Source of the DNA: an uncultured bacterium
GTDB taxonomy: Bacteria; Myxococcota_A; Bradymonadia; UBA7976; VGTA01
NCBI GenBank assembly: GCA_943788935.1
Contig: CALSSE010000001.1
Span: 87,269-151,268, forward strand
Direction of reading: 5' to 3'
DNA: 64,000 nucleotides
A program made the translations under genes and the position numbers. Positions 3,486-60,471 of the stretch are shown in pieces. The notes below the pieces were generated by a model. It saw only the letters and a list, made by a program, of their open reading frames with translations, was not told the origin of the DNA and made no database searches. Numbering within the stretch: position 1 is the first letter of the stretch; the number at the start of each line of letters is the position of its first letter.

Positions 3486-3500
3486 AGAGAGCTGCTCGAG

Positions 3501-3605
3501 CCTCTCTGTAATCAGCCTCTCTGTAATCAGCCTCCCTGTAATCAGCCTCTCTGTAATCAGCCTCTCTGTAATCAACCTCTCTGTAATCAGCCTCTCTATA
3601 ATCAG
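3501..3605. repeat. Intergenic 15-bp tandem repeat (CCTCTCTGTAATCAG)x7
   Basis: Seven contiguous units read directly, three carrying one substitution each. Confidence 0.97.
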
Positions 3606-3648: not shown

Positions 3649-6114
3649 ATGGTAGGGCAAAGATCAAGGCGTGACTTATGGCTCAATCGTCTAGTCGCCC
3701 TCGCTAGTTTTTTTCTAGCGATCTTCTGCTTATATTTAGCGCTCTCTCAACTTGGAGAGCGTCTCCTCACCGATCATCTAGTCAATAAGTTAAACGCCAA
3801 AGGGGTAGAGAGTAGCTGGGCACGAATCGAGTGGTCAGGTAGAGGAATCTGTGCTCATCTCGCTCGAGTACGGGTCCCGAAAGAGCGCTTCACTGCAGAA
3901 GTGAATCAGGTCTGTGCTCGATTAAGTCTCAAGGGGCAATGGCCATTCATCGGTGTCGATGATCTTCTCATTGATCAGCCAAAGATGTGGATCAATGTGA
4001 AGAGTCCCCGAAGAGAACAGATCTCAAGTCATGGGCATCGATCAGTAGAGGAGAGAGAGCTCGGTTATTATCTCTCTACATTCGATCGAGCATTAGCACT
4101 CGGGGCTACGACTTGGCGATCTTTAACCGGTCATTTAGCGACACTTGGTGAACAAGAAATCGAGGTTCGCGAAGGAGAGCTACAGCTTCTATTAAAACCT
4201 ACTCATGGGAGGGGAAGACCATCCCATCTCCTTTTTGGCGTAGAGCTTAACCTCAGCTCGACAGGAGGGAGCGGGAGAGTACGACTCGCTGAGCAGGCGC
4301 AAGTTGTTCATGTAGAGTTTATTCCACAAGAGATCTCCCTCCGCTCTCCACTTCGTTTTGAGGGGGTAGGATTAAAGTTAACAGTAGAGCCTGGAGCGAG
4401 ACTGCTTTATCGAAGAGGTTCTTTTAAATTCGAGAGCTTTATACGCCTTCAGAGGTTTGAGCGCTCAGTCAATAATGATGACTTAAGAGTCCGGATTGAG
4501 CTGTCACATCAAGAGAGTGAGCGGGGTAATGCTCTTGACGTCTCGTTATTGAATACAGCCACAGATGTTAACTCATCTCACCGGTCAAGGGGTCTTCAAG
4601 GTCTCTTTAGTGAGCTTTGTTTGAACGCTCTCTACCTGGGTCGAGAGGTGGAGAAACTACAGGTCACCTTCAAAGGATTAGAGTTCGCTGAGTTAAGTGA
4701 TCTCTTCGCCAACTTTAGCCTTTGGGATTCCTTGGGCTCAGCGTCAAGACTGAACGTGTCTAAGCGAGGTAAGCTAAGTCCCCCGACGACCTTGAGAGGA
4801 TCTCTGACAGGAGAGCTCTCATTGAATGAGAGTCTCTCGCCTCAGCAGGGGAAGCTCGGCTATAAACTCCGCATTAGGCGACCTGAGCTGAGAATGCTCG
4901 GCTTGCCTAAGTTAGGCTGGCCCGCAATCTCAGTGAGCGGCGATCTCGATTATCAGTGGGGGGAATCTAATCAGCGGCAAGCCTTGAGTAGAATAGAGAT
5001 TAAGGATGCTCAAGTTAGAGTGGAGACTCCTCAGTCAGGCCAGGTGAGGGCTTCGCTCACCACTTCATTAGTCACCGATCAGCCGGTGAGCGGATGGACC
5101 TCCCCATTAAAAGCGATTCAATCTCTCAAGTTCGCTCTTGAATCTAAGCGAACAGAGTGCCAAGCACTCTTTAATCTCATCCCGAAGTCTGTCTTAGGCC
5201 CGATTACATCAGCTCAACTCAGTGGGTCAACTGAACCTCAAGTAAGGTTTAATTATCGACGCGCCGTGAGCGGTGAAAAGAATAAAGAGCCTGCGAGTTT
5301 GCAGATCAAAGGGCTACTTCGCCGTTGCCGGTTTGAGGAGATGGGACTCAACCTCTCTCCCCGCCCCCAAGTTAAAGTGAGAGGACGTCGAGCCTCCTTG
5401 AGAGATGTCACTTGGCTCAACGAAGCCTTCACTTTTAAGGTAAATCCTGAGCTCGCTGAAGGAAAGAGGGTAATCATTGGACCGGCGAGTGATAACTTCG
5501 TGGCTTATAATGAGCTACCTGCTTATATTGGCGGGGCTATGTATTTAACCGAGGAGACAGGTTTTTGGAGAGGTGGCGCATTTAGCCCAGCGCTCTTGAA
5601 CCGAGCGATCAACACCAACCTCACCAAAGGGCGGTTTGTCTATGGCGGTTCTACGATCACTCAGCAGCTCGTAAAGAATCTATTTTTACATCGGGAAAAG
5701 ACCCTCACCCGCAAGATCAGAGAGGCTCTGATCTCTGCGAGAGTTATCGATGCCATTAGTAAACGGCGAGTCTTAGAGCTCTATCTGAACATGATCGAGT
5801 TTGGTCCTAAAATTTTTGGTATTCAAGCGGCGGCAAAGTTTTATTTTCAAAAAGAGGCGCGAGCGTTAAGTCCCGAAGAGGCTGTATTTTTAGCGATGTT
5901 AAAGGTCGCTCCTCACCGAGGGCCAAAGTGGGTAAAACGAGGAGTTTCTCCTACTTTCACTTGGTGGCGACAGCGGATGATTCAAGTCTTCAAGCGCTTG
6001 GTCTCAGAGGGGCTCATCACCCCCAAGCGAGCGTTAGGGGCAGCCCCTTTTGTGCTGAGGTGGTCAGAGGGTCAATATCAAGGGAGCGCGCCGATGCGTG
6101 GTGAGGAGAAATAG
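3649..6114 (+). CDS. Membrane-anchored protein with C-terminal GT51 (MtgA-like) peptidoglycan transglycosylase domain
   Basis: N-terminal TM helix. C-terminal GT51 motifs EETGF, GGSTITQQLVKNLFL, RKIREA, LELYLN.IEFG, GIQAAA..YF. No transpeptidase SxxK domain follows. Confidence 0.85.
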   Translation: MVGQRSRRDLWLNRLVALASFFLAIFCLYLALSQLGERLLTDHLVNKLNAKGVESSWARIEWSGRGICAHLARVRVPKERFTAEVNQVCARLSLKGQWPFIGVDDLLIDQPKMWINVKSPRREQISSHGHRSVEERELGYYLSTFDRALALGATTWRSLTGHLATLGEQEIEVREGELQLLLKPTHGRGRPSHLLFGVELNLSSTGGSGRVRLAEQAQVVHVEFIPQEISLRSPLRFEGVGLKLTVEPGARLLYRRGSFKFESFIRLQRFERSVNNDDLRVRIELSHQESERGNALDVSLLNTATDVNSSHRSRGLQGLFSELCLNALYLGREVEKLQVTFKGLEFAELSDLFANFSLWDSLGSASRLNVSKRGKLSPPTTLRGSLTGELSLNESLSPQQGKLGYKLRIRRPELRMLGLPKLGWPAISVSGDLDYQWGESNQRQALSRIEIKDAQVRVETPQSGQVRASLTTSLVTDQPVSGWTSPLKAIQSLKFALESKRTECQALFNLIPKSVLGPITSAQLSGSTEPQVRFNYRRAVSGEKNKEPASLQIKGLLRRCRFEEMGLNLSPRPQVKVRGRRASLRDVTWLNEAFTFKVNPELAEGKRVIIGPASDNFVAYNELPAYIGGAMYLTEETGFWRGGAFSPALLNRAINTNLTKGRFVYGGSTITQQLVKNLFLHREKTLTRKIREALISARVIDAISKRRVLELYLNMIEFGPKIFGIQAAAKFYFQKEARALSPEEAVFLAMLKVAPHRGPKWVKRGVSPTFTWWRQRMIQVFKRLVSEGLITPKRALGAAPFVLRWSEGQYQGSAPMRGEEK

Positions 6115-9683: not shown

Positions 9684-9935
9684 AAATGATTTCCTACCGA
9701 TTAGTGATTGGATGTAATATTTCGTTATCTGTGTAAGTACGGAGAGATGGTCTCTCAATAGGGCGCCGAAGATTATCTGAAACTAGTCTATTATTCTAGT
9801 GCCATTCTAGTGCCAATGAGTATTGGATCTTTTAGTGGATTATACGTCGCTATTTTTTAAATACTTAAATAGATGATCACTAGATACTATTAATCACCAG
9901 ATACTACTGATCACACTGCCGGAGCGCTTCATTCT

Positions 9936-11140: not shown

Positions 11141-11467
11141 ATGATATATGATCTCTTGACAAAGGCAGTCGAAGCAAAAGATGTCGCTGCATGGTCGGCA
11201 TTGTTCAGCGATGACTTTGAATTCGTCCGCCATAAGAGCGGAACCTCTCTCAATAAAACGCAGTCTGTTGAGATGATGAAACAGTTTATGGCCAGCGATA
11301 AAGTGGTCGAGCACAGTCGACGCTGTATCTATGAAAATGAAGACATCCTCGTCATTCACTCGGTGATGGATTTCGCTGACAATACCCGAGAGGCGATTAT
11401 CGCTGTATACACCATCAAAGATGGCTTGATTGTAGCCTCTGAGACCGGAGCGACTCTCTTAAGTTAG
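11141..11467 (+). CDS. NTF2/SnoaL-like small protein
   Basis: 108 aa with the NTF2-fold pattern (AKDVAAWSALFSDDFEF...RCIYENEDILVIHS...ETGAT). AAGGA SD upstream. Confidence 0.75.
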   Translation: MIYDLLTKAVEAKDVAAWSALFSDDFEFVRHKSGTSLNKTQSVEMMKQFMASDKVVEHSRRCIYENEDILVIHSVMDFADNTREAIIAVYTIKDGLIVASETGATLLS

Positions 11468-11470
11468 AGT

Positions 11471-11527
11471 GTCACCTTGGTTGGAGAGTCACCTTGGTTG
11501 GAGAGTCACCTTGGTTGGAGAGTCACC
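11471..11527. repeat. 17-bp tandem repeat (GTCACCTTGGTTGGAGA)x3 plus partial unit
   Basis: Read directly. The unit duplicates the last codons and TGA stop of the convergent 541-aa gene. Confidence 0.93.
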
Positions 11528-17687: not shown

Positions 17688-17729
17688 GCTGCTGTTGACT
17701 TGCTGCTGTTGACTTGCTGTTCTTGACTT
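17688..17729. repeat. Intergenic 14-bp direct repeat x3 (GCTGCTGTTGACTT) in the divergent promoter region
   Basis: Two identical units and a third with two substitutions. Each contains TTGACT. Confidence 0.85.
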
Positions 17730-19462: not shown

Positions 19463-21957
19463 TGAGACGATCTCTCCTGGTATCTAGATTACACTTTTTT
19501 GGTCATATCTTAAACTCTACTATCTTAGGCTACATCACTTTAAGTATTAGCTTGGTAAGCATAGCTCAGGCGCAGAATTCTCAGCCGAAAGAGATGGGTG
19601 ATGGTCAACTTAGCGCTGATCAAACAAAAAAGGTTGACCCATTGGCTTGTCAAGGTCAATGGGGAGGACATTGGTCTCCGTCTCGTGGAGATCAGGCTTC
19701 TTCTTGTGAATGTGTAGTTGGCGAATCGACATGGTCACTGATCTCCCGAGAACCGCTTACGACACAGAGCGTAAAGGAGCAATGCATAGCGCTATGTAAA
19801 GAAACAGCAGTGCCTACTCCTAAAGGAAAGTGCGGTCCATTAGCGGCAGTCTTGGCTAAAGCGATAAGTTATCCTGAGAGCAAACGGGAAGCAGTGAGTG
19901 AGACTCTTCATGGAGAGACCATCAGCGACCCATACCGTTGGCTGGAAGACGATCGTAGCGAAGAAACAGGAGAGTGGGTTAAGCGACAAAATAAACTCAC
20001 TCGCCAATATCTCGACACTCTGACACAACGCGACACCTTAAGAGCTAAGATAGAGGGTGTATGGAACTATGCTAAGATGTCTACGCCTACTCTCGTAGGG
20101 GACGCGGAGACAGGGCGGCTCTTCTACACCTATAATACTGGGTTAGAGAATCAAGCAAAGCTCTATACACGCTCAGTAAGTGAATCTCATCGCGAGGCGC
20201 GAGTGATCCTTGACCCCAATACTCTCTCCGAAGATGGAACAATCGCCTTAAAGCTCTATAAACCGAGCAAGCGAGGACACTATCTCGCTTATCAGTTCGC
20301 TAAAGGCGGCTCAGATTGGGTAGAGGTTAAAGTTCGTGATGTCCGCGCAGGCCAAGATCTAAAGGATCACCTCAAGTGGATAAAATTCAGTGGGATCACT
20401 TGGGATAAGGAGGGAAATGGATTTTATTACAGTCGCTATGATGCTCCGGATGAGGGCTCAAAGCTGACCGAGGTTAACGAATATCAAAAACTTTACTATC
20501 ATAAGCTAGGTCAAGATCAGTCTATGGATCAGTTGATCTATGCCCGTGCCGACCATAAAGAGTGGGGTTTTGATTCTGAGGTGAGCGAAGATGGGTCGTT
20601 GTTGATCATCACCATATGGCAAGGTGCTTCTGATAAGAATCAGCTCTTTTACAAGCGCCTAGATCAAGAGGGAAGCCCTGTGATCCCCTTAATCTCGGAG
20701 TTTAATCATAGTTATCGTTATCTAGGTAATGAAGGTGAGACCTTATGGTTGCAGACCGATCGTGACGCTCCTCGCGGTCAGGTAATCAAGATGCAGCTCA
20801 ACCAAGCTGACCCCTCAGGGTATACCACTGTTGTCCCCGAGCAAGCAGAGGCCCTCACCGACTCACAACTCATCTCTGATCGCTTGGTTCTTCATTACCT
20901 AAAAGATGCTAGCAGTCAGGTGAGGTTCTTTAATCTCTACGGCTCGTCTCAAGGGCAGCTTCCTCCTTTAGGTGTAGGGAGCATTGGGGCGCTCAGCGGT
21001 GGACGTGATAGCAATGTGAGCTATTTCTCATTTAGGAGTTTCTCTCAACCGACGATGATCTATCGATTCCATCACTTCACCCGATCGCTTAAGGTCGTCT
21101 TCCGACCAAAGTTAGATATAGACACTAGCGTCTTCAAGACCGAACAAGTGTTCGTGACCTCCAAAGATGGAGCTAAAATCCCTGCTTTCATTATCTCCTC
21201 GACTCAAGCGAAGGTCACGGGACCTCGTCCAACAGTGCTCTATGGATACGGTGGGTTTAATATCTCACTTACGCCTTATTTTAAGCCCGACCTCCTGCCT
21301 TGGTTACAACAAGGCGGAGTATATGTCGTCGCGAACCTAAGGGGGGGTGGTGAATATGGTGAGGAGTGGCACAAGGCAGGCATGAGAGATCAAAAGCAAA
21401 ACGTCTTTGATGATTTCATCGCAGTCGCTGAGTGGCTCATTGAGTCCAAGCGCACTCGCGCCGACCTCTTGGGGATTTATGGAGGCTCTAACGGAGGTCT
21501 ACTCGTTGGTGCTTGTGCTCAGCAACGACCCGACCTTTATGCTGCAGCCATGCCTGCGGTGGGAGTGATGGATATGCTTCGCTTTCATAAGTTTACTATC
21601 GGATGGGCATGGATTCCTGAGTACGGAGACCCTTCTTCGGCGAAGGACTTTCCTTTCCTGAGAGCATATTCTCCATTGCATAATATGAAAGAGGTTCGTG
21701 CACCAGCCACCTTAGTCTTGACCGCTGATCATGATGATCGAGTGGTCCCCGCACACAGCTTTAAGTACATCGCGACCCTTCAGGAGACTCACCGCGGAGG
21801 AGGGCCGACGCTGATCAGAATTGATCGTCAAGCGGGTCATGGGGCAGGGACTCCCACCGCCAAGCGGATTGACGCTGCTGCCGACCGATGGGCCTTCTTT
21901 GCTCACCACCTCAAGCTCGCTAAAGAAGTGATGACACCCTCTGGTTTGGAACATTAA
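19462..21957 (+). CDS. Prolyl oligopeptidase (peptidase S9A) with signal peptide and Cys-rich N-terminal extension
   Basis: DPYRWLE, catalytic GGSNGG, DHDDRV and AGHGAG. Start overlaps the fum stop. Confidence 0.95.
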   Translation: MRRSLLVSRLHFFGHILNSTILGYITLSISLVSIAQAQNSQPKEMGDGQLSADQTKKVDPLACQGQWGGHWSPSRGDQASSCECVVGESTWSLISREPLTTQSVKEQCIALCKETAVPTPKGKCGPLAAVLAKAISYPESKREAVSETLHGETISDPYRWLEDDRSEETGEWVKRQNKLTRQYLDTLTQRDTLRAKIEGVWNYAKMSTPTLVGDAETGRLFYTYNTGLENQAKLYTRSVSESHREARVILDPNTLSEDGTIALKLYKPSKRGHYLAYQFAKGGSDWVEVKVRDVRAGQDLKDHLKWIKFSGITWDKEGNGFYYSRYDAPDEGSKLTEVNEYQKLYYHKLGQDQSMDQLIYARADHKEWGFDSEVSEDGSLLIITIWQGASDKNQLFYKRLDQEGSPVIPLISEFNHSYRYLGNEGETLWLQTDRDAPRGQVIKMQLNQADPSGYTTVVPEQAEALTDSQLISDRLVLHYLKDASSQVRFFNLYGSSQGQLPPLGVGSIGALSGGRDSNVSYFSFRSFSQPTMIYRFHHFTRSLKVVFRPKLDIDTSVFKTEQVFVTSKDGAKIPAFIISSTQAKVTGPRPTVLYGYGGFNISLTPYFKPDLLPWLQQGGVYVVANLRGGGEYGEEWHKAGMRDQKQNVFDDFIAVAEWLIESKRTRADLLGIYGGSNGGLLVGACAQQRPDLYAAAMPAVGVMDMLRFHKFTIGWAWIPEYGDPSSAKDFPFLRAYSPLHNMKEVRAPATLVLTADHDDRVVPAHSFKYIATLQETHRGGGPTLIRIDRQAGHGAGTPTAKRIDAAADRWAFFAHHLKLAKEVMTPSGLEH

Positions 21958-21969
21958 GAGATACTCACG

Positions 21970-24432
21970 GTGAAGACTCGCGGGAGCGGCACAGTGAGCG
22001 CTGACTTGAGTATCGATCTTAAGACTCATTCAAGATATCCCTGTCGGGTCATACATAGTATGATCTTACCGATACTCCTCTTAGTGATCTTAAGCGCTTT
22101 AAGAGTCGATGGAGCACCGAGGCCAGAAGATGTAATAGGCTCATCTCCCAACTCGATGACTTCTCCTCCATGGCGATCTCTCTCTTGGGCTCTCGCTCAT
22201 CACACTGTCACTCATCAGTCACTTGAGCCACGCACTTATAGAGGAGACCAAACTCAAAGTGAGCGAGGTACTCTCATCGGTCAACGTTCTCGGGCTTATC
22301 TCTCACAGCCATTTTCACTTAAGGCAGAGTGGGAGGCATGGGTAGAAGTTCATGCTTTACTCTCTGACCCATTATCTATCCCTGATGGGGTACTAAACAG
22401 GAGTATAGTTAAAGGAAGGGCTTATAGAGGTGGTGAGTACAAAGAGCTCATATGGATGAGGAAGTCTTTTGCATGTAGTCACTGGCAGCGATATGAGCGC
22501 TTTGTTGAGCTCTCTCCAACGCTTCATCAGACGGCAGATCTCAGTCAGAGCTGTCCACAGCTCTCTCAATACCTCACTGACTATGGCGAGGCTAATATAG
22601 AATTACTCTTCATTGGAGATCTCACAGAGGATCCCGCCTCCGCTTTTGGGCACATGTTGTTAGGTGTTGAGGCTCACTCATCATCTATCGCTTTGCAGCG
22701 ATCGATGATTCTCTCTTTCTCGGTGCCCTCCATACAAGGAATGTGGCATGCGCTCCGTCTTCTATTTACAGGCGGAGAAGGTGTTTATCAATTCACTGAC
22801 CTGATCCAAACTTTGGAACGGTATCGCAACGGAGAGCGGAGAGATATCTGGCGTTATCCGCTAAAGCTCTCTTCGGTTGAGAAGAGAAGAGTACTCATGG
22901 GGATCTGGTCTCTCACCGGACTCAAAGAGACCTATACCTTTGCTGGTGATAACTGCGCATCGAAGATCTCTCTTCTGATGGCTAACGCGACTCAAAACTT
23001 TGACTTATATTCTAAGCTACCCTGGCCAAGAGCACCTCTTGAGCTTATCACTCTTTTTGCTCAAGCAGGATATCTCGCTCCACCTCATTATTTACCAAAC
23101 CCCATAAAGAGACAACGAGGGATTGAGGCTCTACTCGCTAAGCTCAGAGATCAATCATTACTCGATCAAACTGTATTTGATCGGTTAGCTCTTGAGGGAA
23201 AGCTCAATGAGCGAGCGATCAAAGAGGGAGAGGTTATGACCGAAAGAGGTGAGCGGTCAAAGAGAGAGAGAGAGGTCCTGTCTAATGAGCGAGCAGCGCT
23301 CCTACAGAGGATGGTCGTCCAAACTCCTCCGCGGGTAACTACAGTGACAAAGTTCCACATTATTAGTGAGAGCGCACCTCCTCATACAGCGACCGCTTAC
23401 CCTGAGTTGAAGTTAGGTATAAGGTGGAGAGAAACTAGCTCGGATAATGGGCACCAGCTTCTCTATGCATCTCCACTAAGCTACGCCATAAAGGGTCGTT
23501 GGCGAGGACAAGGCTTTGATGAACGGATCGGAATTGGTCAGATGTCTGATCGCGAATGGTCTCTGCTCGACCTCTCAGTTTTCGCTCTTCAAGACCCTCG
23601 CTTAAGAGGTGGAGAAGTGAGGGGACAGAACTCCTTGGTAAATGAGGCAGATGAGACAGTGAGACATACCACACGCCGATTATTACTAGGGCGGCTCTCC
23701 TTATTACAGATTAAGCAAAGGACACTCAGTGATGATGGATCTTGGTCATGGGATTTTCACTTAGCGTATGAGAGTGGTTTTTTCGCCCATTACTTATTAG
23801 GGAAGACTTGGGGGACATCTCCCTTAATCAGCGAATCTCTTTCATCTCTATCTAAATCTGAACAAGGGAGAGAACTCAGTGAGAAAGGGTTGAGCGCTCA
23901 TCAAGATCGAAGTCAACTCTTCTCTTGGCTCCCCGTCTTCCCCTCATCTTATTACTCAAGAGTCGCTAGAGGTAATATGTTCTCGTTATCACAGTGGCGA
24001 CTGTCACTCTTGGGAGGGACCACTCTTTTGCCCTGTCATCAGCTAACCTCTCTCTTGATAACTGACCAAAAAGGATTTTGCCTCAAAGAGGAGACACCCT
24101 TCTCTCTCAATCTCACTATAAACCTTCGAGGTGTTGTTCCGGTCTCTTCATGGATGAGTATGTATATTGATCATGCCTCAAGTGTCCAAAGCCTCTCTAA
24201 TAATAAAAGCCCGTTCTCTACACACCGAGATCACCTGTTTAACAATGATCTAACCATCTCATTCCATCCGACTTTTAGCCCTGACTCCAACTTTTGGGGT
24301 CTCTCTCTGTATACCCAAGTCGTTCACAGAGTAAGCCTTTATTATAATGTATCAGAGCGTTTGTCTCCTTCAGTCAGTGCGAGTAGAGAAGCGTCAACAA
24401 CACTCTCGATGGGTATACAAATAAATCGATGA
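21970..24432 (+). CDS. DUF4105 (Lnb_N-like) domain protein with probable C-terminal beta-rich/barrel region
   Basis: PASAFGHMLL, RDIWRYPL and YTFAGDNCAS match the DUF4105 GH and NC motifs. The true start is probably downstream of 21970. Confidence 0.72.
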   Translation: MKTRGSGTVSADLSIDLKTHSRYPCRVIHSMILPILLLVILSALRVDGAPRPEDVIGSSPNSMTSPPWRSLSWALAHHTVTHQSLEPRTYRGDQTQSERGTLIGQRSRAYLSQPFSLKAEWEAWVEVHALLSDPLSIPDGVLNRSIVKGRAYRGGEYKELIWMRKSFACSHWQRYERFVELSPTLHQTADLSQSCPQLSQYLTDYGEANIELLFIGDLTEDPASAFGHMLLGVEAHSSSIALQRSMILSFSVPSIQGMWHALRLLFTGGEGVYQFTDLIQTLERYRNGERRDIWRYPLKLSSVEKRRVLMGIWSLTGLKETYTFAGDNCASKISLLMANATQNFDLYSKLPWPRAPLELITLFAQAGYLAPPHYLPNPIKRQRGIEALLAKLRDQSLLDQTVFDRLALEGKLNERAIKEGEVMTERGERSKREREVLSNERAALLQRMVVQTPPRVTTVTKFHIISESAPPHTATAYPELKLGIRWRETSSDNGHQLLYASPLSYAIKGRWRGQGFDERIGIGQMSDREWSLLDLSVFALQDPRLRGGEVRGQNSLVNEADETVRHTTRRLLLGRLSLLQIKQRTLSDDGSWSWDFHLAYESGFFAHYLLGKTWGTSPLISESLSSLSKSEQGRELSEKGLSAHQDRSQLFSWLPVFPSSYYSRVARGNMFSLSQWRLSLLGGTTLLPCHQLTSLLITDQKGFCLKEETPFSLNLTINLRGVVPVSSWMSMYIDHASSVQSLSNNKSPFSTHRDHLFNNDLTISFHPTFSPDSNFWGLSLYTQVVHRVSLYYNVSERLSPSVSASREASTTLSMGIQINR

Positions 24433-24446
24433 TCAAATCCAATAAG

Positions 24447-24707
24447 TAAATAGCTCAGCTGAGCTATTTAAATGGACCAGCCTAGTTAATGATCATACTG
24501 AGGCAGGGTTAACGAGACAGGGTTAACGAGGTTTATTATCGCTTGAGTGAGTAAATAGCTCAACTGAGCTATTTAAATGGACTGATTTGGAGATGTGTTT
24601 TCGAAGGGCTCCCTATAAGTCTCTAATAGATAAATAGCTCAGTTGAGCTATTTAAATGAAGCAGACCTAGGATCTTGAACAGATAAATAGCTCAGCTGAG
24701 CTATTTA
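24447..24707. repeat. Four copies of the 24-bp palindrome TAAATAGCTCAGCTGAGCTATTTA (REP-like cluster) between convergent genes
   Basis: Copies at 24447-24470, 24552-24575, 24631-24654 and 24684-24707. Copies 1 and 4 are perfect; copies 2 and 3 carry one central mismatch. Confidence 0.95.
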
Positions 24708-26431
24708 TCCATAAAGAGTTCACCTTCAAAGAACTTGATCAGCTCGGTTCGATCAAGTAAGCGAGCGGCGGCGAGACTTAGCGCGAGGTAAGCATGCACC
24801 ACCACTTCTTTGGTAGGGTTACCCTTCACAGCCCCCCTTAAAGCGATTAAATGAGCCTCTATTGTATTGAGGTCTCCTCTCATGAGCGGTCCGGTAAGTT
24901 GTTCCTTGAACACTTGTAGCGGTGTGTGGGGGTCTTCATTTATAAGAGTATTCGTTGATTGATTATTGGTCGAAGTCTCAAGGTCGTTGAGATAGGCGCT
25001 CAATGCAGAATGGTATAAATGCTGGACAGCGGCTCGAGCCTCTCTTCGAGGTATTCCGATTTCTTCAAGTAAGAGCTCGCTAAGCGAGAGAGGTACCATG
25101 GACAGATTCGCTCCGATAACTGCCGCGGCATGATAGAGGAGACGATGATCCTCGTTAACAACATCAGGGCAGGAGTCAGAATATTTTTCTGCCAGTTGTT
25201 CTTGTTTATCTAGAGCTGAGTTGGCCAAAGAGGGTAGGTTGAGAACGTTCCCCTTGAGATCATTAACGAGACTTGAGAGGAGCTCATAAGCGGTGGCATG
25301 ACCCGTGATGAAATAAGCAACTCCATGAAGAGCCTCAGGTGGGGTTTGCGAAGTTTTAAACGAATAAAGTGGGTGACATTGAGCCGTTTGCATTCCCCAT
25401 TTTTTAAGAGGTTCTAATCGCCTTGGAGAAGCGATTCCTGAGCAGTGAGCAACGACTTGAGGAAGTGGGGAGTTATTTCTTGAGAGCTGGGAGGGTCGCA
25501 GAGAAGAGAGCAGAGAGGATAACAGCGAGGAGATCGGTTCGATTTTGTCATCTCTCGAGGCGATGAGCCAAAGGTCATAAGAGGAGGCTTTGGCAATTAA
25601 TGATCTCAAATCATCAATCGCCTCTCTCTCTTTGAGCGCGAGGAGCTCTCTGAGGCTGACCGAGCTTACTCTGAGTCCTGCTCCCCTTATTGCCAATGCT
25701 AAACTTCCTCCACAGCGACCTCTTCCCCAAATAAAAACCGAGGGCCTCTTGGTCTGTATTGAAGGCTCATGAGGATGAAGCGCGCTCTCCTCAGAGATGG
25801 GCTGCGAGGGGTTACTATACAGACGCGAGATCTCTTCTCTCAAGAGATGAGGGATCCAACTAAGCGGAGGCATCTCCCACTCTTGCTGTTCGATAGGTAA
25901 ACTCAGATGAGTTCTGATCTCACTCGATGAAACAGAGGGGAGGGCCGGCCCAATATCAAATTGAAGAGAGCTTTGGGCATTGATCATTGAGCTCTCATGT
26001 CCTGGGCGGCTCATTACGATTAAAGGCCATCGGTTACAGAGCTCATTAAATCGATACCATTTATGGGAGACTGATAAGTTGTCTGAACCGATGACTAACT
26101 TAAAGAGGGTTTCGGGGTAACGCTTAGAGAGCTCTTCTAACGTGTCATAAGTTCTCCCACTGAACATGGGTTCACTCTCTATTTCGCATATATGGACGTT
26201 CTGCATTGAAGCGCATGCCCGCCTAAGCAAGTGAGCTCTCTCTTCAAACGGACGCATGTTCTTGTTAAAGACATGCTTAAATGAAGGTAAGAACCACACC
26301 TCATCAATGTCAGCTCTAGTGATCAAGTAAGTCACGGTGAAGAGGTGAGCTAGGTGAGGTGGATTGAAAGCACCACCAAAGATAGCGATCGTTTTGGGTC
26401 GATGCTGATTAATCATCGACTTGATGACCAC
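24701..26431 (-). CDS. nadD: Fusion of nicotinate-nucleotide adenylyltransferase (NadD) with a Rossmann-like/DUF2520 (PanG-like) domain
   Basis: N-terminal FGGAFNPPHLAH, TYDTL, VIGSDN, SSSEIR. C-terminal IWGRGRCGGSLA, VAHCSG, CHPLYSF, YHAAAV, LTGPLMRGD..TI.AHL. Confidence 0.85.
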   Translation of the reverse strand: MVIKSMINQHRPKTIAIFGGAFNPPHLAHLFTVTYLITRADIDEVWFLPSFKHVFNKNMRPFEERAHLLRRACASMQNVHICEIESEPMFSGRTYDTLEELSKRYPETLFKLVIGSDNLSVSHKWYRFNELCNRWPLIVMSRPGHESSMINAQSSLQFDIGPALPSVSSSEIRTHLSLPIEQQEWEMPPLSWIPHLLREEISRLYSNPSQPISEESALHPHEPSIQTKRPSVFIWGRGRCGGSLALAIRGAGLRVSSVSLRELLALKEREAIDDLRSLIAKASSYDLWLIASRDDKIEPISSLLSSLLSSLRPSQLSRNNSPLPQVVAHCSGIASPRRLEPLKKWGMQTAQCHPLYSFKTSQTPPEALHGVAYFITGHATAYELLSSLVNDLKGNVLNLPSLANSALDKQEQLAEKYSDSCPDVVNEDHRLLYHAAAVIGANLSMVPLSLSELLLEEIGIPRREARAAVQHLYHSALSAYLNDLETSTNNQSTNTLINEDPHTPLQVFKEQLTGPLMRGDLNTIEAHLIALRGAVKGNPTKEVVVHAYLALSLAAARLLDRTELIKFFEGELFMDK

Positions 26432-26446: not shown

Positions 26447-27835
26447 TCATTTTCCTTTTGTAAGCCCGATATATTTTTTGACTTGACTCTTCTCTTTACC
26501 TGTCTGTGCATATTTCCGAGCTGAAGACCATTCCTGGCGGGCTTTGCTGTAATTCTTCTGCTTGAAAGCCTTCATCCCTCTCTTAATATACGCACCAAAA
26601 CGAGCTTTCTTCTGTTTTGTCGTGAGAGACCCCTTCTTCTTAACGGCGGCTTTCTTAACGGCGGCTTTCTTAGCGGCGGCTTTCTTAGCGGCGGCTTTCT
26701 TAGCGGCGGCTTTCTTAGCGGCGGCTTTCTTAGCGACAGCTTTCTTAGCGGCGGCTTTATCAGCGGTAGCTTTCTTAGCGGCGGCTTTATCAGCGGCGGC
26801 TTTATCAGCGGCGGCTTTATCAGCGGCGGCTTTATCAGCGGCGGCTTTATCAGCGGCGGCTTTATCAGCGGCGGCTTTATCAGCGGCGGCTTTATCAGCG
26901 GCGGCTTTATCAGCGGCGGCTTTATCAGCGGCGGCTTTATCAGCAGCTTCTTTATCAGTAGCTTCTTTATCAGTAGCTTCTTTATCAGTAGCTTCTTTAT
27001 CAGTAGCTTCTTTATCAGCAGCTTCTTTATCAGTAGCTTCTTTATCAGCGGCGGCTATACTAGCAGCTTCTTTATTAGTGGTGGTTTTCTCTTCAATAAC
27101 GGTTTCATCAGCACCGAAATCGGTATAAGAATAATAAGTGACTACCGCAGCAGTAACCGCTAAGAGTCCCCCCAAGATAAAGGGGAACATATTGACCCGG
27201 TTTGGTTGTTGGTCGTCCACATAGGCGATATCTGAGTCAAACCAATCAACTTGTTTAACATTCAGAGTGTTTGCTATTGGAGTCAAATGGTCCGGCATAG
27301 GAGTTACGATCTCTTTGAGGATCGGGCTGTTAGAAGCGGGCTTGGCCAGTGTACTCGATTCACTGCTTACGGCGGACGTCTGTAATGGCTCAGCTGATCT
27401 AACTCTAAATACTGGGTCGGCTTTGTCAGCAGCGGCTTTGTCAGCAGCGGCTTTGTCAGCAGCGGCTTTGTTAGCAGCGGCTTTGTTAGCAGCGGCTTTG
27501 TCAGCAGCGGCTTTGTCAGCAGCGGCTTTGTCAGCAGCGGCTTTGTCAGCGGCGGCTTTGTCAGCAGCGGCTTTGTCAGCAGCGGCTTTGTCAGCGGCGG
27601 CTTTATCAGTAGCGGCTTTGTCAGAAGCGGCTTTGTCAGAAGCGGCTTTGTTAGCAGCGGCTTTGTCAGCAGCGGCCTTTGCGTGCTCCTCTCTCTCCCG
27701 ATCAAGAGTAGCTCTCATCTCTTCAGTCATGACGAAGCCAGCAACAGTTCTAGCGAGCTCAGGAGGCTTCTCTTTTTTTGAAGGAGTGGCCGGAGCATCG
27801 GATGAGTTAAGCGCAGTTTTGGACTCTTTTTGCAT
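26447..27835 (-). CDS. TolA-like low-complexity single-pass membrane protein with (AADKA)n/(AAKKA)n repeats and C-terminal TPR-like helices
   Basis: Two repeat blocks flank the TM helix [20 protein letters not shown]-terminus [17 protein letters not shown]. Confidence 0.7.
26630..27060. repeat. Coding 15-bp tandem array (about 28 units; DKEAT to DKAAA to KKAAA)
   Basis: Units such as CAGCGGCGGCTTTAT and TAGCGGCGGCTTTCT read directly. Confidence 0.93.
27417..27680. repeat. Coding 15-bp tandem array (about 17 units; AADKA)
   Basis: Units CAGCAGCGGCTTTGT read directly. Confidence 0.93.
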
Positions 27836-42469: not shown

Positions 42470-42530
42470 GCACCCTCTGAGCAGTGGCTGAGATCTAGTT
42501 AAGATCCAGCAAAGATCTAGTAAAGAAAAC

Positions 42531-45172: not shown

Positions 45173-45199
45173 GTATCATTTGACCTTCGTATCATTTGA
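45173..45199. promoter_or_regulatory. Direct repeat GTATCATTTGA x2 (16-bp period) in a divergent promoter region
   Basis: Copies at 45173-45183 and 45189-45199. A regulatory role is inferred only. Confidence 0.3.
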
Positions 45200-45280
45200 A
45201 CTCTATATCAATGCCTCTGTATAGCTTGATCTACTCTGCAGATCAAAACAGAACCTATAGCTCAAATGTGATCATAGAAT

Positions 45281-56538: not shown

Positions 56539-59500
56539 TTGCAGTGTGTGTTGCTGCCGAGGGAGATGACCTTAACTTTGAATCGTTCGTTCAATGACAT
56601 GCCCTTCGACCCGACCCCCCACCCGGCTCATTTCGCCTTAGAGAGCTCAACGCCAACCGCAGATGACCCTCTCTGTCTCACTCTTCTTCAAGCGCCTCCT
56701 GGTCGACCTCAGCGTAAGCGAATTGATCGCTATGGCGTTAAACACGCCATCCCTCCTTTGGTATGGGGAGCGCACTATGTGAAGTGCGCTGATTACCAAA
56801 GCCTTGGGGAGTTGATGACCTTCTTGGAATATCAACCCTCATTGATCGTTATTCGAGGGTGTCCGCCTCAAGATAAAGCACATTATGCCCCTAATTTAGA
56901 GAGTCTCAGAGCGTCTATGGATCGACTTGAGCATTCTTGGAGCTTTGCTCAAGCGATCTATCAAGACCTCTCTGCCGCTAGGCGACTGTTTAAGAGACTA
57001 GAGGGAGAAGGTGATTCGACTCTTCAGCGTCGTCAAAAACTCACCGTCCAGATTCAAGAGTACTTTGATGGCTTATACGCGATCGGATGGCTCCCACGAC
57101 GTAAGTCGATCTTCAAAGAGGTACCGAGAAGTTGGGTTTGGCTCGATTTAGATCAAGGTCTAGAGCTTCCCTCTTCTTTTCAGCTTACCCATCGAGCGGA
57201 TCATCACGCGGCGCTTCGATGGATCGTGAGACAAGGGCTCCCCCCCTCTTTTCATGAGGTGAGCTTCGTCGGCCAATGGTCGAGCAGCGCCTTTATGAGA
57301 GGGATGAAAGTGAAGGCTCACTTCGCCTTTCTCTTTGAGCAACCGCTCAGCGAAGCGGCGCTGAAGGCTTGGCATGGGGTGAGAGGGGTCTATAATTGGC
57401 CGGTAAAGTGGGATCCCGCTACCTTTAGAACGGTACAACCTCACTTCACTGCGGCCCCAAAGTTTATCGACACCCCCTCGCCCATAAATGAGCGAACGTT
57501 TCCGGTCAACGGGCTCTATGACTCCGTCCCTCTAGATGACCTCTCGGTGATGAAATTGGAGGTACAGGGTCGATCTCTGAGCGGTGGACGCTCTAAGCGG
57601 CCGGCTCAAGCGACCTCTTCTTCGGTAACATCTAGAAAAGCGAAGCGACACTCTGCTCAATCAACAGCTAAAACCCACTTAGTAGACAAAACCCACTCAG
57701 CAGACAAAACTAATCAACCGGAGGGCGCTGACCACTTTCGACAGGGTCAAGAGGAGACTCTCGTTCGACCACAGTGGCGGGACTATCCCGCAGAGCAGCA
57801 CCCTGAAGTAGAGAGGGTCCTAGAGGTTCAAGTTGAACGATTGAGCCAAGCGGAAGAGGGGCAACGTAATCAAGCTCTCTACCGAGCGGCTTGCGTCCTT
57901 GGCCGATATCAAGGAGGAGGGCTGATCAGTCAAGCTGCGCTTAATCGAGCTCTATTACAAGGAGCAGAGCAATGTGGACTGCTCATTAAAGTGGGTGAGC
58001 CAGAGTGCCTCCGTCAGATCTATAATGGAGTCCGTTGGGGATCTAGTCGTCCCATTAATCCAACGACGGTGAGCTCCGCGCTTTCCCTGCGTGATCGGGG
58101 TTACACCGAACGGCTCTCTGCACGACTCCAACGAGCGATCGTTGAGGCTAAAGAAGACCCTCGTAAAATCCCAGTGATCGCTTTGACCTGTGGAGGAGGA
58201 AAAACCTCTGCGCTGAGAGCGCTGATGGCGGTTGATGCTGCTGCTGGAGAGCCGAGGGTAGTGCTCTGTCGAAATCATCTTATGGCCGCAGAATTTCTAG
58301 AGGCGCTTAATAGCTATGCTGAGACACATCAGCTCAACATTAAGAATAAGGTCCGACTGCTTGAGGGCATGCAGAGGCATTGTCGAGTCCTCAAAGAAGC
58401 CAGCCCTGCGCAGGCGAGCCGACTACACAGCGCGCTCGCTTATGGTCGGCAAGCCCTCTGCGGTCGGGGGAAGTCTCGCTGTGAATATGCGAAGAAGTGT
58501 CAAGGCTCTAAGCGACCGCAGGCTTTGAAGCGAGGAGTGACGATTGCGACCCATGCTATGGGCCCAATCCTTGAGATCCCCGAAGGAGCGGTCATCGTCA
58601 TCGATGAACTCCCGACCCCAGTAAAGGGGGTGAAAATTACCCTCTCGGACCTCGTTCCACTCTCTCGGGAGAGCGAGCAACGTGATTTACCTCTTCTAGA
58701 CTCCTTTCAAGGTTGGCGAGACGCACATCCCCAACTCCATGAGGTATCTAAAGCTGTTCAAGAAGTTTTAGACCAACTCGCTAAGAGCCCAAATCTCGCT
58801 GACCAAGATTATGGCCAAACGCTAGACCCTGAAGAAGCGTTGTTGATCTTCTCATCTCTGATCAATCCTCTCGCCGAGCTTCAGGCGGTTGAGCTGAGCC
58901 CGATGCCTTTACCGCCTCCGCAGAGCACTCGCCGTGGTGTTTGGCCTCAGCTCCCCAAACGTGGGGTGATCGAGGCGCTACTAGAGCTCGCACGAGAGGT
59001 CCCTGATGGAGTGTGGCCAAGCTCTATTTCTGTCCACTGGCGAAGACAAGAGGCCTGGCTAGAGTTGCGCGAAGTCTATGCGCTGCCTCAAGGCTCTTTG
59101 GTGTGTTTGGATGGGACAGCTCATAGAACAGAGCATATTTGGTCTCATCTCGCTAAGAGCTCGCCGTTGAGCCTTGAGAAGTCCTTCACTTCTAAGAGTA
59201 GAGCTCTATCCGAAGGAAGGCCCGTTCGCTCAGGAGACCTACCTTCACCTTATCAGCTCAACCGACGAGCATCGGGAAGAGATTCATTAAACGGTAATGA
59301 TGAGCGCCTCATAGAGCAAGTGCTAGATCGTCCGCAGAGCCATGACACCCCATTGGACAGGGTGAGGTGAGGTGAGGTTGAGGTTGAGGTTGAGGTTGAG
59401 GTTGAGGGGGATCGCTCTCGTGAGGTAGATATTTGGCCGATCGCCGCCGTAGGAGAACCTCCCCTCTTCTCCCGTTGGATCAAAACTCAATCTCTGAGGA

Positions 59501-60369
59501 CCTCTCAACTGATCCGTCGAGATGAGCGAGGGTGGATTCATTGGAGGCAGAGAGCCATTGGCACGCTAAAGAGGATCAGCTTTACCATCGAGAAGGCCGC
59601 TCGTGACGCCCGCCTCTCTACTGGCCAAACCGTTGGGATATTAGCCGCCAAGCATGTGGCTGACTTATTCCGATTCGCGCTCCAGCAAGAGACCCACCCT
59701 CAGTTCTCAGTGAAGAGTCCAATCGTTGATGCCCTGGCGTCAGAGATGAGGAGTGCGCTTGGTCATCGGGAGGTGATCATTGGGCATGTAGGGGCACATG
59801 ATATCGGCTCTAACCTCTTTAATGGCGTTGATCTTTTAGCCATGCTGGGCTCAAGTAAGCCCGATTGGGGATCAACGATTTCAGACTTGAGAGCGATCGG
59901 AGTGCCCGAGGATGAATGCGCTGAGGTGTATACCCATATTGTCTCCGCGAGAGATGTCCAAGGTCTCGCGAGAGCTCGACACCTTCGACGGCGAGGAGTA
60001 GGCTTACTCTATATCGGGGATATGCCTCCCCCTGTTGGACATGACCTCCCCGATGTTCGCTGGAGCCAAGAGGAGGCCGAGCATCTTAAGGTGAATGAGA
60101 CCCTACAAGGGACGGAGGCTCAGGCTTTCAATCTGTTAATGAGCCATGGCTTTATCACCGTCCCCATGCTGCGCACTGAGTTAGAGATGACTCGCGCGCG
60201 CGCAGAATCCGTCTGTAAAAGATTACAGCGTTGCTATGAACTCGTAGAGTGGGTTCATCGTAAGGGGGGGAGAGGTCGAGGGTCGAGAGCTTACGGAATG
60301 CCCGCCCATCACCCAGAGATGAGAGCGTCGGAGAGCCTCAAAGAGAGTGGGCGCTCTGATCATGATTAA
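56539..60369 (+). pseudogene. Primase/polymerase-like + PriCT-like + SF2 helicase + wHTH protein, interrupted by an in-frame TGA at 59368-59370
   Basis: ORFs 56539-59370 and 59656-60369 are in the same frame with no other stop between them. Motifs LDLD, KAHF, VQPHFTAAP; QRNQALYRAAC; TCGGGKT, IATH, VIDE, LDGTA; GSNLF, QGLARAR. Confidence 0.75.
59361..59405. repeat. Compound microsatellite (GGTGA)3(GGTTGA)5
   Basis: Read directly. The pentamer block places a TGA in all three frames; the hexamer block encodes (EV)n. Confidence 0.97.
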
Positions 60370-60471
60370 GGGATGCTTAATGACACAAGCATGACAGTCT
60401 TCGCCCCATGGAAACCTACATTAAATGGCTCAAATGAGCTATTATCTTGATGAGTCTCAGCGAGGAGAGCA

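Follow-up and report, generated by a model that had tools for sequence, protein, structure and literature searches.

The window, that is, the whole 64,000-nt stretch of DNA that was analysed, derives from marine metagenomes and is ordinary chromosome. Its protein domains may point to an organism of Myxococcota or Bdellovibrionota type, from an uncultured lineage. It carries tsaD, ksgA and ribA together with genes for a transglycosylase PBP, a class I fumarase and a prolyl oligopeptidase. It also encodes an Mrp/NUBPL ATPase and an ECF sigma factor, and PEGA, FG-GAP, MopE, TSP3 and PP2C proteins are numerous in it. The array considered here occupies a 268-bp spacer (24433..24700) between a gene with an Lnb_N domain and a fusion gene that joins a nadD-like part to DUF2520. 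The two genes are convergent, since the plus-strand Lnb_N ORF (21970..24432) stops 14 nt before the first palindrome and the other ORF lies on the minus strand. No homologue of the Lnb_N protein besides itself was found, which leaves the left flank without a closer relative.

A search of the window for the 24-mer TAAATAGCTCAGCTGAGCTATTTA with up to three mismatches returned exactly four matches, while shuffles of the window returned none. Two of the copies are exact (24447-24470 and 24684-24707) and the other two carry one central change each (CAaCTG at 24552-24575, CAGtTG at 24631-24654), with copies 2 and 3 being exact reverse complements of each other. The copies start 105, 79 and 53 bp apart, which leaves gaps of 81, 55 and 29 bp. 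An earlier note, made from the sequence alone, had described four 24-bp palindromes with these gaps between convergent genes, a fourth copy extended to 28 bp around the nadD stop, and a 13-bp duplication in gap 1. All of this is borne out. Copy 4 is laid out as an 11-bp arm, CAGCTG and a second 11-bp arm, and contains the stop codon TAG of the nadD-like gene (CTA on the plus strand, 24701-24703); the duplicated 13-mer is CAGGGTTAACGAG, present twice. The four copies are the only perfect palindromes with a stem of at least 10 in the whole 64 kb. The features of the locus are as follows.

21970..24432, plus strand: gene with an Lnb_N domain, convergent with the nadD-like gene
24447..24470, no strand: copy 1, perfect 24-bp palindrome TAAATAGCTCAGCTGAGCTATTTA, 14 nt 3' of the stop of the plus-strand gene
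24469..24492, no strand: degenerate copy with 16 of 24 bases, abutting copy 1
24500..24530, no strand: tandem repeat in gap 1, GAGRCAGGGTTAAC, period 14 nt, 2.2 copies (TRF)
24552..24575, no strand: copy 2, centre CAaCTG (CAGTTG in the X8 and X13 alleles)
24631..24654, no strand: copy 3, centre CAGtTG (CAGCTG in one X13 allele)
24682..24709, no strand: copy 4, 28-bp palindrome GATAAATAGCTCAGCTGAGCTATTTATC, holding the stop codon of the nadD-like gene
24701..26431, minus strand: nadD-like (CTP_transf_like, NadD family) and DUF2520 fusion gene, its 3' end running into copy 4 (Pfam)

The array is not an assembly artefact. Logan contigs from runs of four different studies (X1, X4, X6 and X7) cover it, none of them with an indel or a structural change, and the contig from X4 contains all four copies. 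The lone SNP in these contigs is a G>A change at 24595, in gap 2.

Because each copy is a perfect palindrome, any pair of copies is both direct and inverted. On the nadD-sense strand, GTCCATT precedes copies 1 and 2, and CTTCATT precedes copy 3. The exact 11-mer half-site AAATAGCTCAG has two further occurrences in the window, where 0.03 would be expected.

Several kinds of known element were considered and set aside. A CRISPR array was rejected, as the gaps are irregular and the window has no cas domains. The string TAGCTCAGYTG resembles a tRNA D-arm, and a tRNA-derived element was rejected because ARAGORN found no tRNA and Rfam had no match at gathering score; in E-value mode Rfam returned only generic long-hairpin (miRNA precursor) models, far below threshold. 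The cumulative GC skew has no switch at the array locus, and a replication origin or terminus was discarded on this ground. Similarity to phages and plasmids is at chance level only, and the core strings of the palindrome do not occur in the literature text searched. Pfam searches of all sizeable ORFs in the window found no transposase, Y1/RAYT, integrase, recombinase, Cas or ParB domain, and found no gene for a DNA-binding partner near the array among the window ORFs.

Conservation of the palindromes among strains

Divergent alleles of the array are carried by runs X8, X13 and X16. The X8 allele aligns from copy 1 to gap 2 with no indels and with 27 differences in 167 nt. The 22 listed differences comprise 18 in gap 1, two in gap 2 and two at the centre of copy 2 (AC to GT), and both units of the 14-nt repeat in gap 1 change in parallel. 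X13 differs in all three gaps and, among the palindromes, at two centres: AC has become GT in copy 2, and GT has become GC in copy 3. There is no listed change in copy 1 in the X8 and X13 alleles, and copy 4 has no differences in X16 and X13.

Taken over the divergent alleles, none of about 120 listed arm positions is changed, compared with 32 of 265 spacer positions (about 12%; Fisher P = 4e-6), these counts being limited to positions with listed differences and a few near the ends of the aligned pieces being unlisted. The unlisted end differences that could be traced, from loose-end sequences, lie outside the palindromes. Only the central two bases vary, among GC, AC, GT, AA and TG. Within the array itself the same contrast is found, as the palindromes differ at 2 of 96 positions and the alignable flanks at about 30%.

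Unchanged arms beside drifting spacers indicate purifying selection on the arms in place, with the central dinucleotide left free. Judged from these alignments, the arms are under such selection, and in this sense, as a selected element, the array is functional. Gene conversion by itself would not make strains diverge more slowly. Thus, public metagenome contigs can expose purifying selection on a non-coding element of only 24 bp.

The number of copies may nevertheless vary. One X13 contig joins ...TTATCGCT directly to TGAGCTATTTA, where a 21-nt deletion has probably taken the left arm of copy 2; if this is true, the copy number is not fixed.

The strain data contradict the fallback named in the earlier note, a neutral scar of local duplication without function. 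Such a scar would suit a genome rich in short intergenic tandem repeats, the similarities between the flanks suggest an origin by duplication, and relatives exist that have no array. However, the arms do not drift like the spacers, either between strains or between copies, and related copies occur at other loci and in other lineages (described below). We therefore regard this explanation as extremely improbable.

Site-specific recombination is another function that had been proposed. Copies 2 and 3 would then bound an invertible or excisable segment, or the copies would be the scars of integrated modules. The 11 + 6 + 11 bp architecture of copy 4 is what such a site might look like, copies 2 and 3 are reverse complements with opposite asymmetric centres, and the locus is a synteny breakpoint. 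Against this, the metagenome contigs covering the array contain no inversion or deletion joints, the centres vary among strains by simple transitions, and spacers of 29-81 bp are too short for modules. A dif/Xer-type or tyrosine-recombinase site was rejected on the lack of joints, of a recombinase gene in the window and of a skew switch, and to our knowledge the palindrome has no resemblance to the dif consensus. A recombination site is thus very unlikely.

Family members at other loci and in relatives

The motif is found at a second locus in the window, which brings the total over the 64 kb to two loci and five copies.

60422..60445, plus strand: diverged single copy TAAATgGCTCAaaTGAGCTATTat, 19 of 24 bases, with a G.U pair on the sense strand

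This copy matches the 24-mer at 17 of the 20 outer positions, whereas the next best sites in the window match at 13 of 20, and about 0.003 such sites would be expected per 64 kb. It lies in a 102-bp spacer (60370-60471) between co-directional genes, with the stop of ORF 59656..60369 52 nt upstream and a GNAT gene 26 nt downstream. In two divergent alleles of this locus the spacer has 9 and 6 changes, respectively, and the 24-mer is intact; pooled, 0 of 48 positions in the 24-mer are changed and 15 of 156 outside it (P = 0.02).

Relatives were compared at the nadD locus. The closest nadD-like protein, with 42% identity, is that of L031, where TAAATgGCTCAtgTGAGCTATTTt lies 26 nt after the nadD stop and agrees with the 24-mer at 20 of 24 bases (P ~5e-7 within 140 nt). 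In L027, L028 and L029 (nadD-like proteins with 40% identity) a decayed copy lies across the nadD stop and retains 19 of the 28 bases of copy 4, and the stop codon is shifted within it. The decayed copy of L027 corresponds to 17 of 24 bases of the 24-mer, and a second one, with 16 of 24, follows 18 nt further on (TGAGCTA). The motif is absent at the nadD locus of L026, L030, L032 and L034. The counterpart of the array spacer in relatives is 5 bp (L026), 46 bp or a gene overlap (L030). Since relatives live with a 5-bp spacer or with overlapping genes, the array is in principle dispensable. Proteins encoded by the L026 neighbours are 70-80% identical to those of the window between 26.4 and 32.8 kb, so that the relatives are moderately close and the nadD-like gene is simply fast-evolving.

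Synteny with every relative stops exactly at the nadD 3' end. It likewise breaks after the 237-aa gene ending at 60369, and L036 and L037 have different downstream genes at this second locus and no motif. All members found (the array, the 60422 copy and those of L031 and L027) lie 0-52 nt 3' of a stop codon. In gene-sense orientation the family consensus is T.CATT-TAAATrGCTCA-NN-TGAGCTATTT.

When 118 kb (the window and the loci of the relatives) were searched with a covariance model of the hairpin, no additional member emerged. The sole extra match is a weak one (E = 0.6) in a divergent promoter region of L026 (4629-4672). A scan with AATAGCTCARYTGAGCTATT gave 9 matches in genome_contigs and 16 in metagenome_contigs, which were rejected as unrelated, being all single and almost all AATT-centred; the collections scanned do not include the source genome, and the array's own four copies were not returned. 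Viral contigs gave no match to AATAGCTCARYTGAGCTATT and none to the refined pattern.

Among known elements, the REP/BIME/REPIN class of Enterobacteria and Pseudomonas comes closest. These too are short extragenic palindromes that often cluster in convergent gaps or at operon ends and form hairpins at RNA 3' ends. At 24-28 bp, in spacers of 268 and 102 bp, the palindromes described here are extragenic and within the REP size range of about 20-40 nt. REPs are scattered over a genome in tens to hundreds of copies and usually flank the gene of their cognate RAYT, a Y1/HUH transposase. Central bases differ between the copies of some REP doublet classes, the conserved A and T runs at the ends of REP doublets have been taken as a sign of co-option for termination, and up to five REPINs have been reported in a tandem array (PMC3337134). 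By analogy, the family of this lineage can be called REP-like. It adds a well-documented family of conserved extragenic palindromes in an uncultured marine lineage.

There are also clear differences. A REP is an imperfect palindrome with a conserved 5' tetranucleotide head of the GTAG type, whereas the 24-mer is perfect, has no GTAG and has the 5' flank T.CATT. Furthermore, the flanks form doublets in direct orientation (copies 1 to 3), the arms are kept in place across strains, and no RAYT was found in the window. Of the four readings that the earlier note had offered with no choice among them, that of a REP/BIME-like element gains support from the position 3' of stop codons and from the members elsewhere.

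It is rather improbable that the palindrome is a true REP or REPIN, in the sense of a mobile hairpin copied by a Y1 transposase (RAYT) encoded elsewhere, with a BIME-like cluster here and with incidental effects on transcripts. The motif is extragenic and clustered, and at two loci per 64 kb a genome of a few Mb would, by extrapolation, contain roughly a hundred. Synteny with the closest relatives breaks at each of the two loci. When the flanks of copy 1 are joined, they resemble the contiguous sequence after the nadD stop of L031, as expected of a 24+2 nt insertion, the P value of about 0.01 for this 'empty site' alignment being post hoc. A comparison of the L031 flanks with the window gaps by ordinary local alignment was discarded, as the similarity is not significant (P = 0.17-0.67). 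The long vertical persistence of REPIN-RAYT systems (bioRxiv 10.1101/2022.05.22.493013; PMC3337134) would explain a conserved sequence. However, no Y1 transposase was found in the window, the palindrome is perfect and headless, the doublets are direct rather than inverted, and the covariance model found no further copy in 118 kb. In addition, every arm is kept in place across strains, which points to selection at the locus and not only on a master copy.

Proposed hairpins at transcript ends and possible recognition of the sequence

In RNA, each copy would fold into a hairpin of 10-14 bp with a 4-nt loop. The predicted energies of the array copies are -11.7 to -19.2 kcal/mol each on either strand. 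An A-rich run, a GC core and a U-rich run follow one another in this order, and thus the hairpin would read alike from both strands. Both single copies (60422 and L031) have an A>G change in the 5' arm, giving a G.U pair on the sense RNA only: the 60422 copy is predicted to fold at -11.5 kcal/mol in sense and -6.3 in antisense, and the L031 copy at -9.8 and -7.4 kcal/mol, respectively. Copies 1 to 3 and the 60422 copy all have the 5' flank T.CATT, oriented alike with respect to the upstream gene.

The RNA data consist of low-depth assembled contigs rather than reads and carry no strand information. In the X25 metatranscriptome a 910-nt contig covers the gene upstream of the 60422 hairpin, crosses the hairpin and ends at 60460, 15 nt past it; the next gene has no RNA contig on it. 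RNA contigs are nearly absent across the array, with both flanking genes represented, and one contig (24366-24516) crosses copy 1.

Similarity to intrinsic bidirectional terminators is evident from the A-run, the stem-loop containing GC, the T-run and the position just after stops in a convergent gap. In contrast to ordinary terminators, the stem is AU-rich, the same sequence is present four times, and it is conserved across lineages. A scan for consensus terminators found nothing at the palindromes, where there is no GC-rich stem-loop directly followed by a canonical U-tract. The palindromes do not pass such a scan because the T-run is interrupted (TATTTA) and the stem is AU-rich. Only with AGCUC/GAGCU counted as the core stem are there 5 U among the 8 nt behind it, in copies 1, 3 and 4 in nadD sense. 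The earlier suggestion of a bidirectional terminator or RNA-stabilising element gains support, as does that of a REP/BIME-like element, from the sense-strand fold with its G.U pair and from the RNA contig end at 60460, and the consensus terminator scan is against a terminator.

The explanation that we favour, tentatively and at just short of an even chance, is that of a lineage-specific REP-like family of palindromes that form hairpins at RNA 3' ends and that have been multiplied here by local duplication. Like enterobacterial REP elements, the hairpins would pause or terminate transcription and block 3'-exonucleases, and would in this way both mark the 3' ends of transcripts and protect them. 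Within the convergent gap, both the nadD-like mRNA and the mRNA of the Lnb_N gene, which come from opposite strands, would make use of them, and the proposed use of both strands would account for the perfect symmetry kept in the array. The 60422 copy, which is between co-directional genes, may tolerate its G.U pair, which suits the sense strand alone. The role in termination or stabilisation is inferred, as is the history of duplication. If the hairpins are transcript-end signals, they could serve to mark operon ends in this lineage, whose genomes have no evident canonical terminators.

A bare hairpin does not require all that is conserved here. There is no compensatory covariation among the members: what is kept is the sequence rather than the pairing, and the A and T that close the loop never vary. 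Recognition by a sequence-specific protein therefore fits at least as well. Since conservation across relatives exceeds what a bare hairpin needs, and the sequence is still alike at distances over which ordinary terminators should have diverged, a sequence-specific partner of the 24-mer, either a protein or a REP-type transposase, is also implied. If a specific protein recognises the hairpins, it would be worth finding.

A precedent for hairpins whose sequence is also read is offered by the inverted pairs of DUS and USS in Neisseria and Pasteurellaceae. There, a conserved motif 3' of genes doubles as a terminator hairpin, its conservation is explained by a sequence-specific partner, and it occurs about once per kb throughout the genome. 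In contrast, half-sites of the present palindrome are only mildly enriched outside the array (14 found, 6 expected).

The partner may instead recognise duplex DNA. The copies would then be sites for a dimeric sequence-specific protein, each with two 11-bp half-sites and 2 uncontacted bp between them, together forming a multi-site array. The protein could be a regulator, one of nucleoid or partition type, or a roadblock halting RNA polymerase from both sides. This would agree with arms that are strict in strains and largely kept across relatives, the central 2 bp alone being free, and with the lack of covariation and the invariant A and T, which a tetraloop does not need. The distances of 105 and 53 bp between starts come near to whole numbers of helical turns, the extra AAATAGCTCAG half-sites exceed expectation, and the 60422 copy, at 26 nt, is upstream of a gene start. 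However, three of four loci are at gene 3' ends, two of them in convergent gaps without a promoter. The flank is oriented, and the asymmetric arm of the single copies always fits the sense strand. No gene for a DNA-binding protein, ParB or recombinase is nearby, the spacing differs by 1 nt in one strain, and a half-site is probably missing in one. On balance, duplex sites are somewhat unlikely, if still a serious alternative.

Operator, centromere and iteron-like arrays of the sopC/parS type have regular spacing and are located beside the genes of their binding proteins. The present array resembles the operator and centromere arrays in having clustered identical palindromic sites with variable central bases. 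It differs from them in its irregular spacing, its position at the 3' end of chromosomal genes and the lack of a partner gene nearby.

Two further possibilities are, together, unlikely. In the first, the 24-mer is read by a protein of the lineage and the four-site cluster acts as a two-sided transcription barrier or insulator, comparable, in bacteria, to roadblock termination. In the second, it is the hairpin of an undescribed REP-transposase system outside Proteobacteria, the group in which such systems are known. Either would explain why the sequence, and not just the pairing, is conserved across relatives and strains.

Spacing and origin of the array

The earlier note had placed emphasis on the arithmetic series of the gaps and on helical phasing. 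If gaps are uniformly distributed, three of them will form an exact arithmetic series with a prior probability of about 0.5%, and the pattern was picked post hoc. It requires at least two independent indels and it is broken in X13, where a 1-nt deletion at 24665 gives gaps of 81/55/28. For these reasons, the exact 26-bp step is most likely a coincidence, and the arithmetic spacing has no demonstrated meaning. The length of gap 1 is partly due to the 14-nt slippage repeat, which does not favour the earlier emphasis either.

More can be learned from the flanks. Copies 1 and 3 have longer flanks in common, on both sides, while copies 2 and 4 have a 3' flank in common. Gap 3 (AATGAAGCAGACCTAG...CTTGAACAGA) matches both ends of gap 1 (AATGGACCAGCCTAG...CTTGAGTGAG). 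Gap 1 exceeds gap 3 by 52 nt, and the slippage repeat falls within those 52 nt. From these similarities, we infer as the simplest history that a unit of two palindromes was duplicated and that later indels changed the gaps.

Short tandem repeats are numerous between the genes of the window, including another convergent gap (42491-42526; TRF), which suggests that local duplication is common in this genome. The four-copy cluster would thus have arisen by local duplication of the two-palindrome unit in a slippage-prone genome.

The centres of copies 2 and 3, described earlier as reciprocal variants, are best explained by repeated G:C>A:T transitions at the central GC, which is free to vary. If only this GC is free, and G>A occurs on either strand, two mutated copies will be opposite half the time. 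Pairing of copy 2 with copy 3 was rejected as the reason for their reciprocal centres, since chance suffices and other strains show other combinations, with GT in copy 2 and GC in copy 3.

Two minor features of the gaps may be added. The degenerate copy at 24469..24492 probably echoes an earlier duplication. Small ORFs within the gaps were set aside, being of only 20-25 aa and having TTG starts.

Divergence and gene order around the nadD-like gene

The nadD-like/DUF2520 fusion (24701-26431) shares only 35-45% identity with its counterparts in the relatives' loci (L026, L027, L030 and L031), and its neighbouring genes share 70-80%. A different gene lies downstream of the fusion in each relative, and thus the 3' end of the nadD-like gene is a recurrent synteny breakpoint. 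Upstream, the relatives keep the same order, with the repeat protein gene directly adjoining:

26447-27835, reverse strand: 462-aa repeat-rich protein, directly upstream of the nadD-like gene

This protein consists mostly of 15-nt (5-aa) repeats such as AADKA, EATDK and AAKKA, with about 45 units in two blocks, and it matches the histone-like HC2 family through low-complexity matches. For the convergent gene on the other side of the array, which encodes an 820-aa Lnb_N-domain protein (21970-24432, forward strand), a word-indexed search of 5.8 billion proteins returned only the protein itself.

An RNA contig that is abundant (depth 25-55) in three metatranscriptomes aligns within the prolyl oligopeptidase gene, at 21236-21416, but only over about 20 nt to the left and right of a skip of 136 nt (21260 to 21397), and it continues into unrelated sequence. 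Most likely, this is a chance or partial match of an abundant foreign transcript and not splicing.

Resemblances to the palindrome and its half-sites

Immediately after the nadD stop of L031, which has the closest nadD-like protein, positions 1952-1976 (GTCCATTTATTGGCTT) are similar to the joined flanks of palindrome copy 1, GTCCATT plus CTTATTGGATT (window 24433-24484), with P ~0.01 for what is a post hoc comparison. The likeness gives the impression of an insertion of 24+2 = 26 nt at copy 1. In L026, positions 4629-4672 (GATAAATAG-TTTGGAGATCTACAA-GCTATTTTC) keep the palindrome's outer frame, but the inner palindrome is another one, with AGATCT at its core. The site falls within a divergent promoter region in this relative, and its covariance-model match is weak (18 bits, E = 0.6).

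Within the array, TAGCTCAG(C/T)TG-AGCTA (24451-24466 and the other copies) is similar to the 5' part and D-arm of tRNA (TAGCTCAGTTGG...GAGC). Since tRNA and tRNA-like models gave no match, this likeness to the D-arm is probably coincidental.

The exact 11-mer half-site AAATAGCTCAG, one arm of the palindrome, occurs two further times, within ORFs, where 0.03 are expected. The positions are:

48050, forward strand: half-site
50690, forward strand: half-site
21017, reverse strand: also noted

Beyond the array, the 10-mer with at most one mismatch is present 14 times, where 6.2 +/- 2.6 would be expected. The excess may reflect codon or oligonucleotide bias, or genuine half-sites.

Tandem repeats in gap 1 and elsewhere

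In the divergent array allele from metagenome run X8, the 14-nt tandem repeat of gap 1 (24500-24530) is altered alike in its two units relative to the reference: GGTT is replaced by AACA in one unit and by AACG in the other. The second unit and the partial third unit also show G>T at their first base. Either concerted evolution of the two units or renewed formation of the repeat by slippage accounts for this.

The genome seems slippage-prone. The window's intergenic DNA is unusually rich in short tandem repeats (period 6-17 nt), such as AGCCTCTCTGTAATC x7 and AGGTTG x8.5, and another convergent gap also holds one:

Short intergenic tandem repeats
3499-3605
9793-9914
11463-11527
17688-17729
42491-42526
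45174-45210
59359-59407
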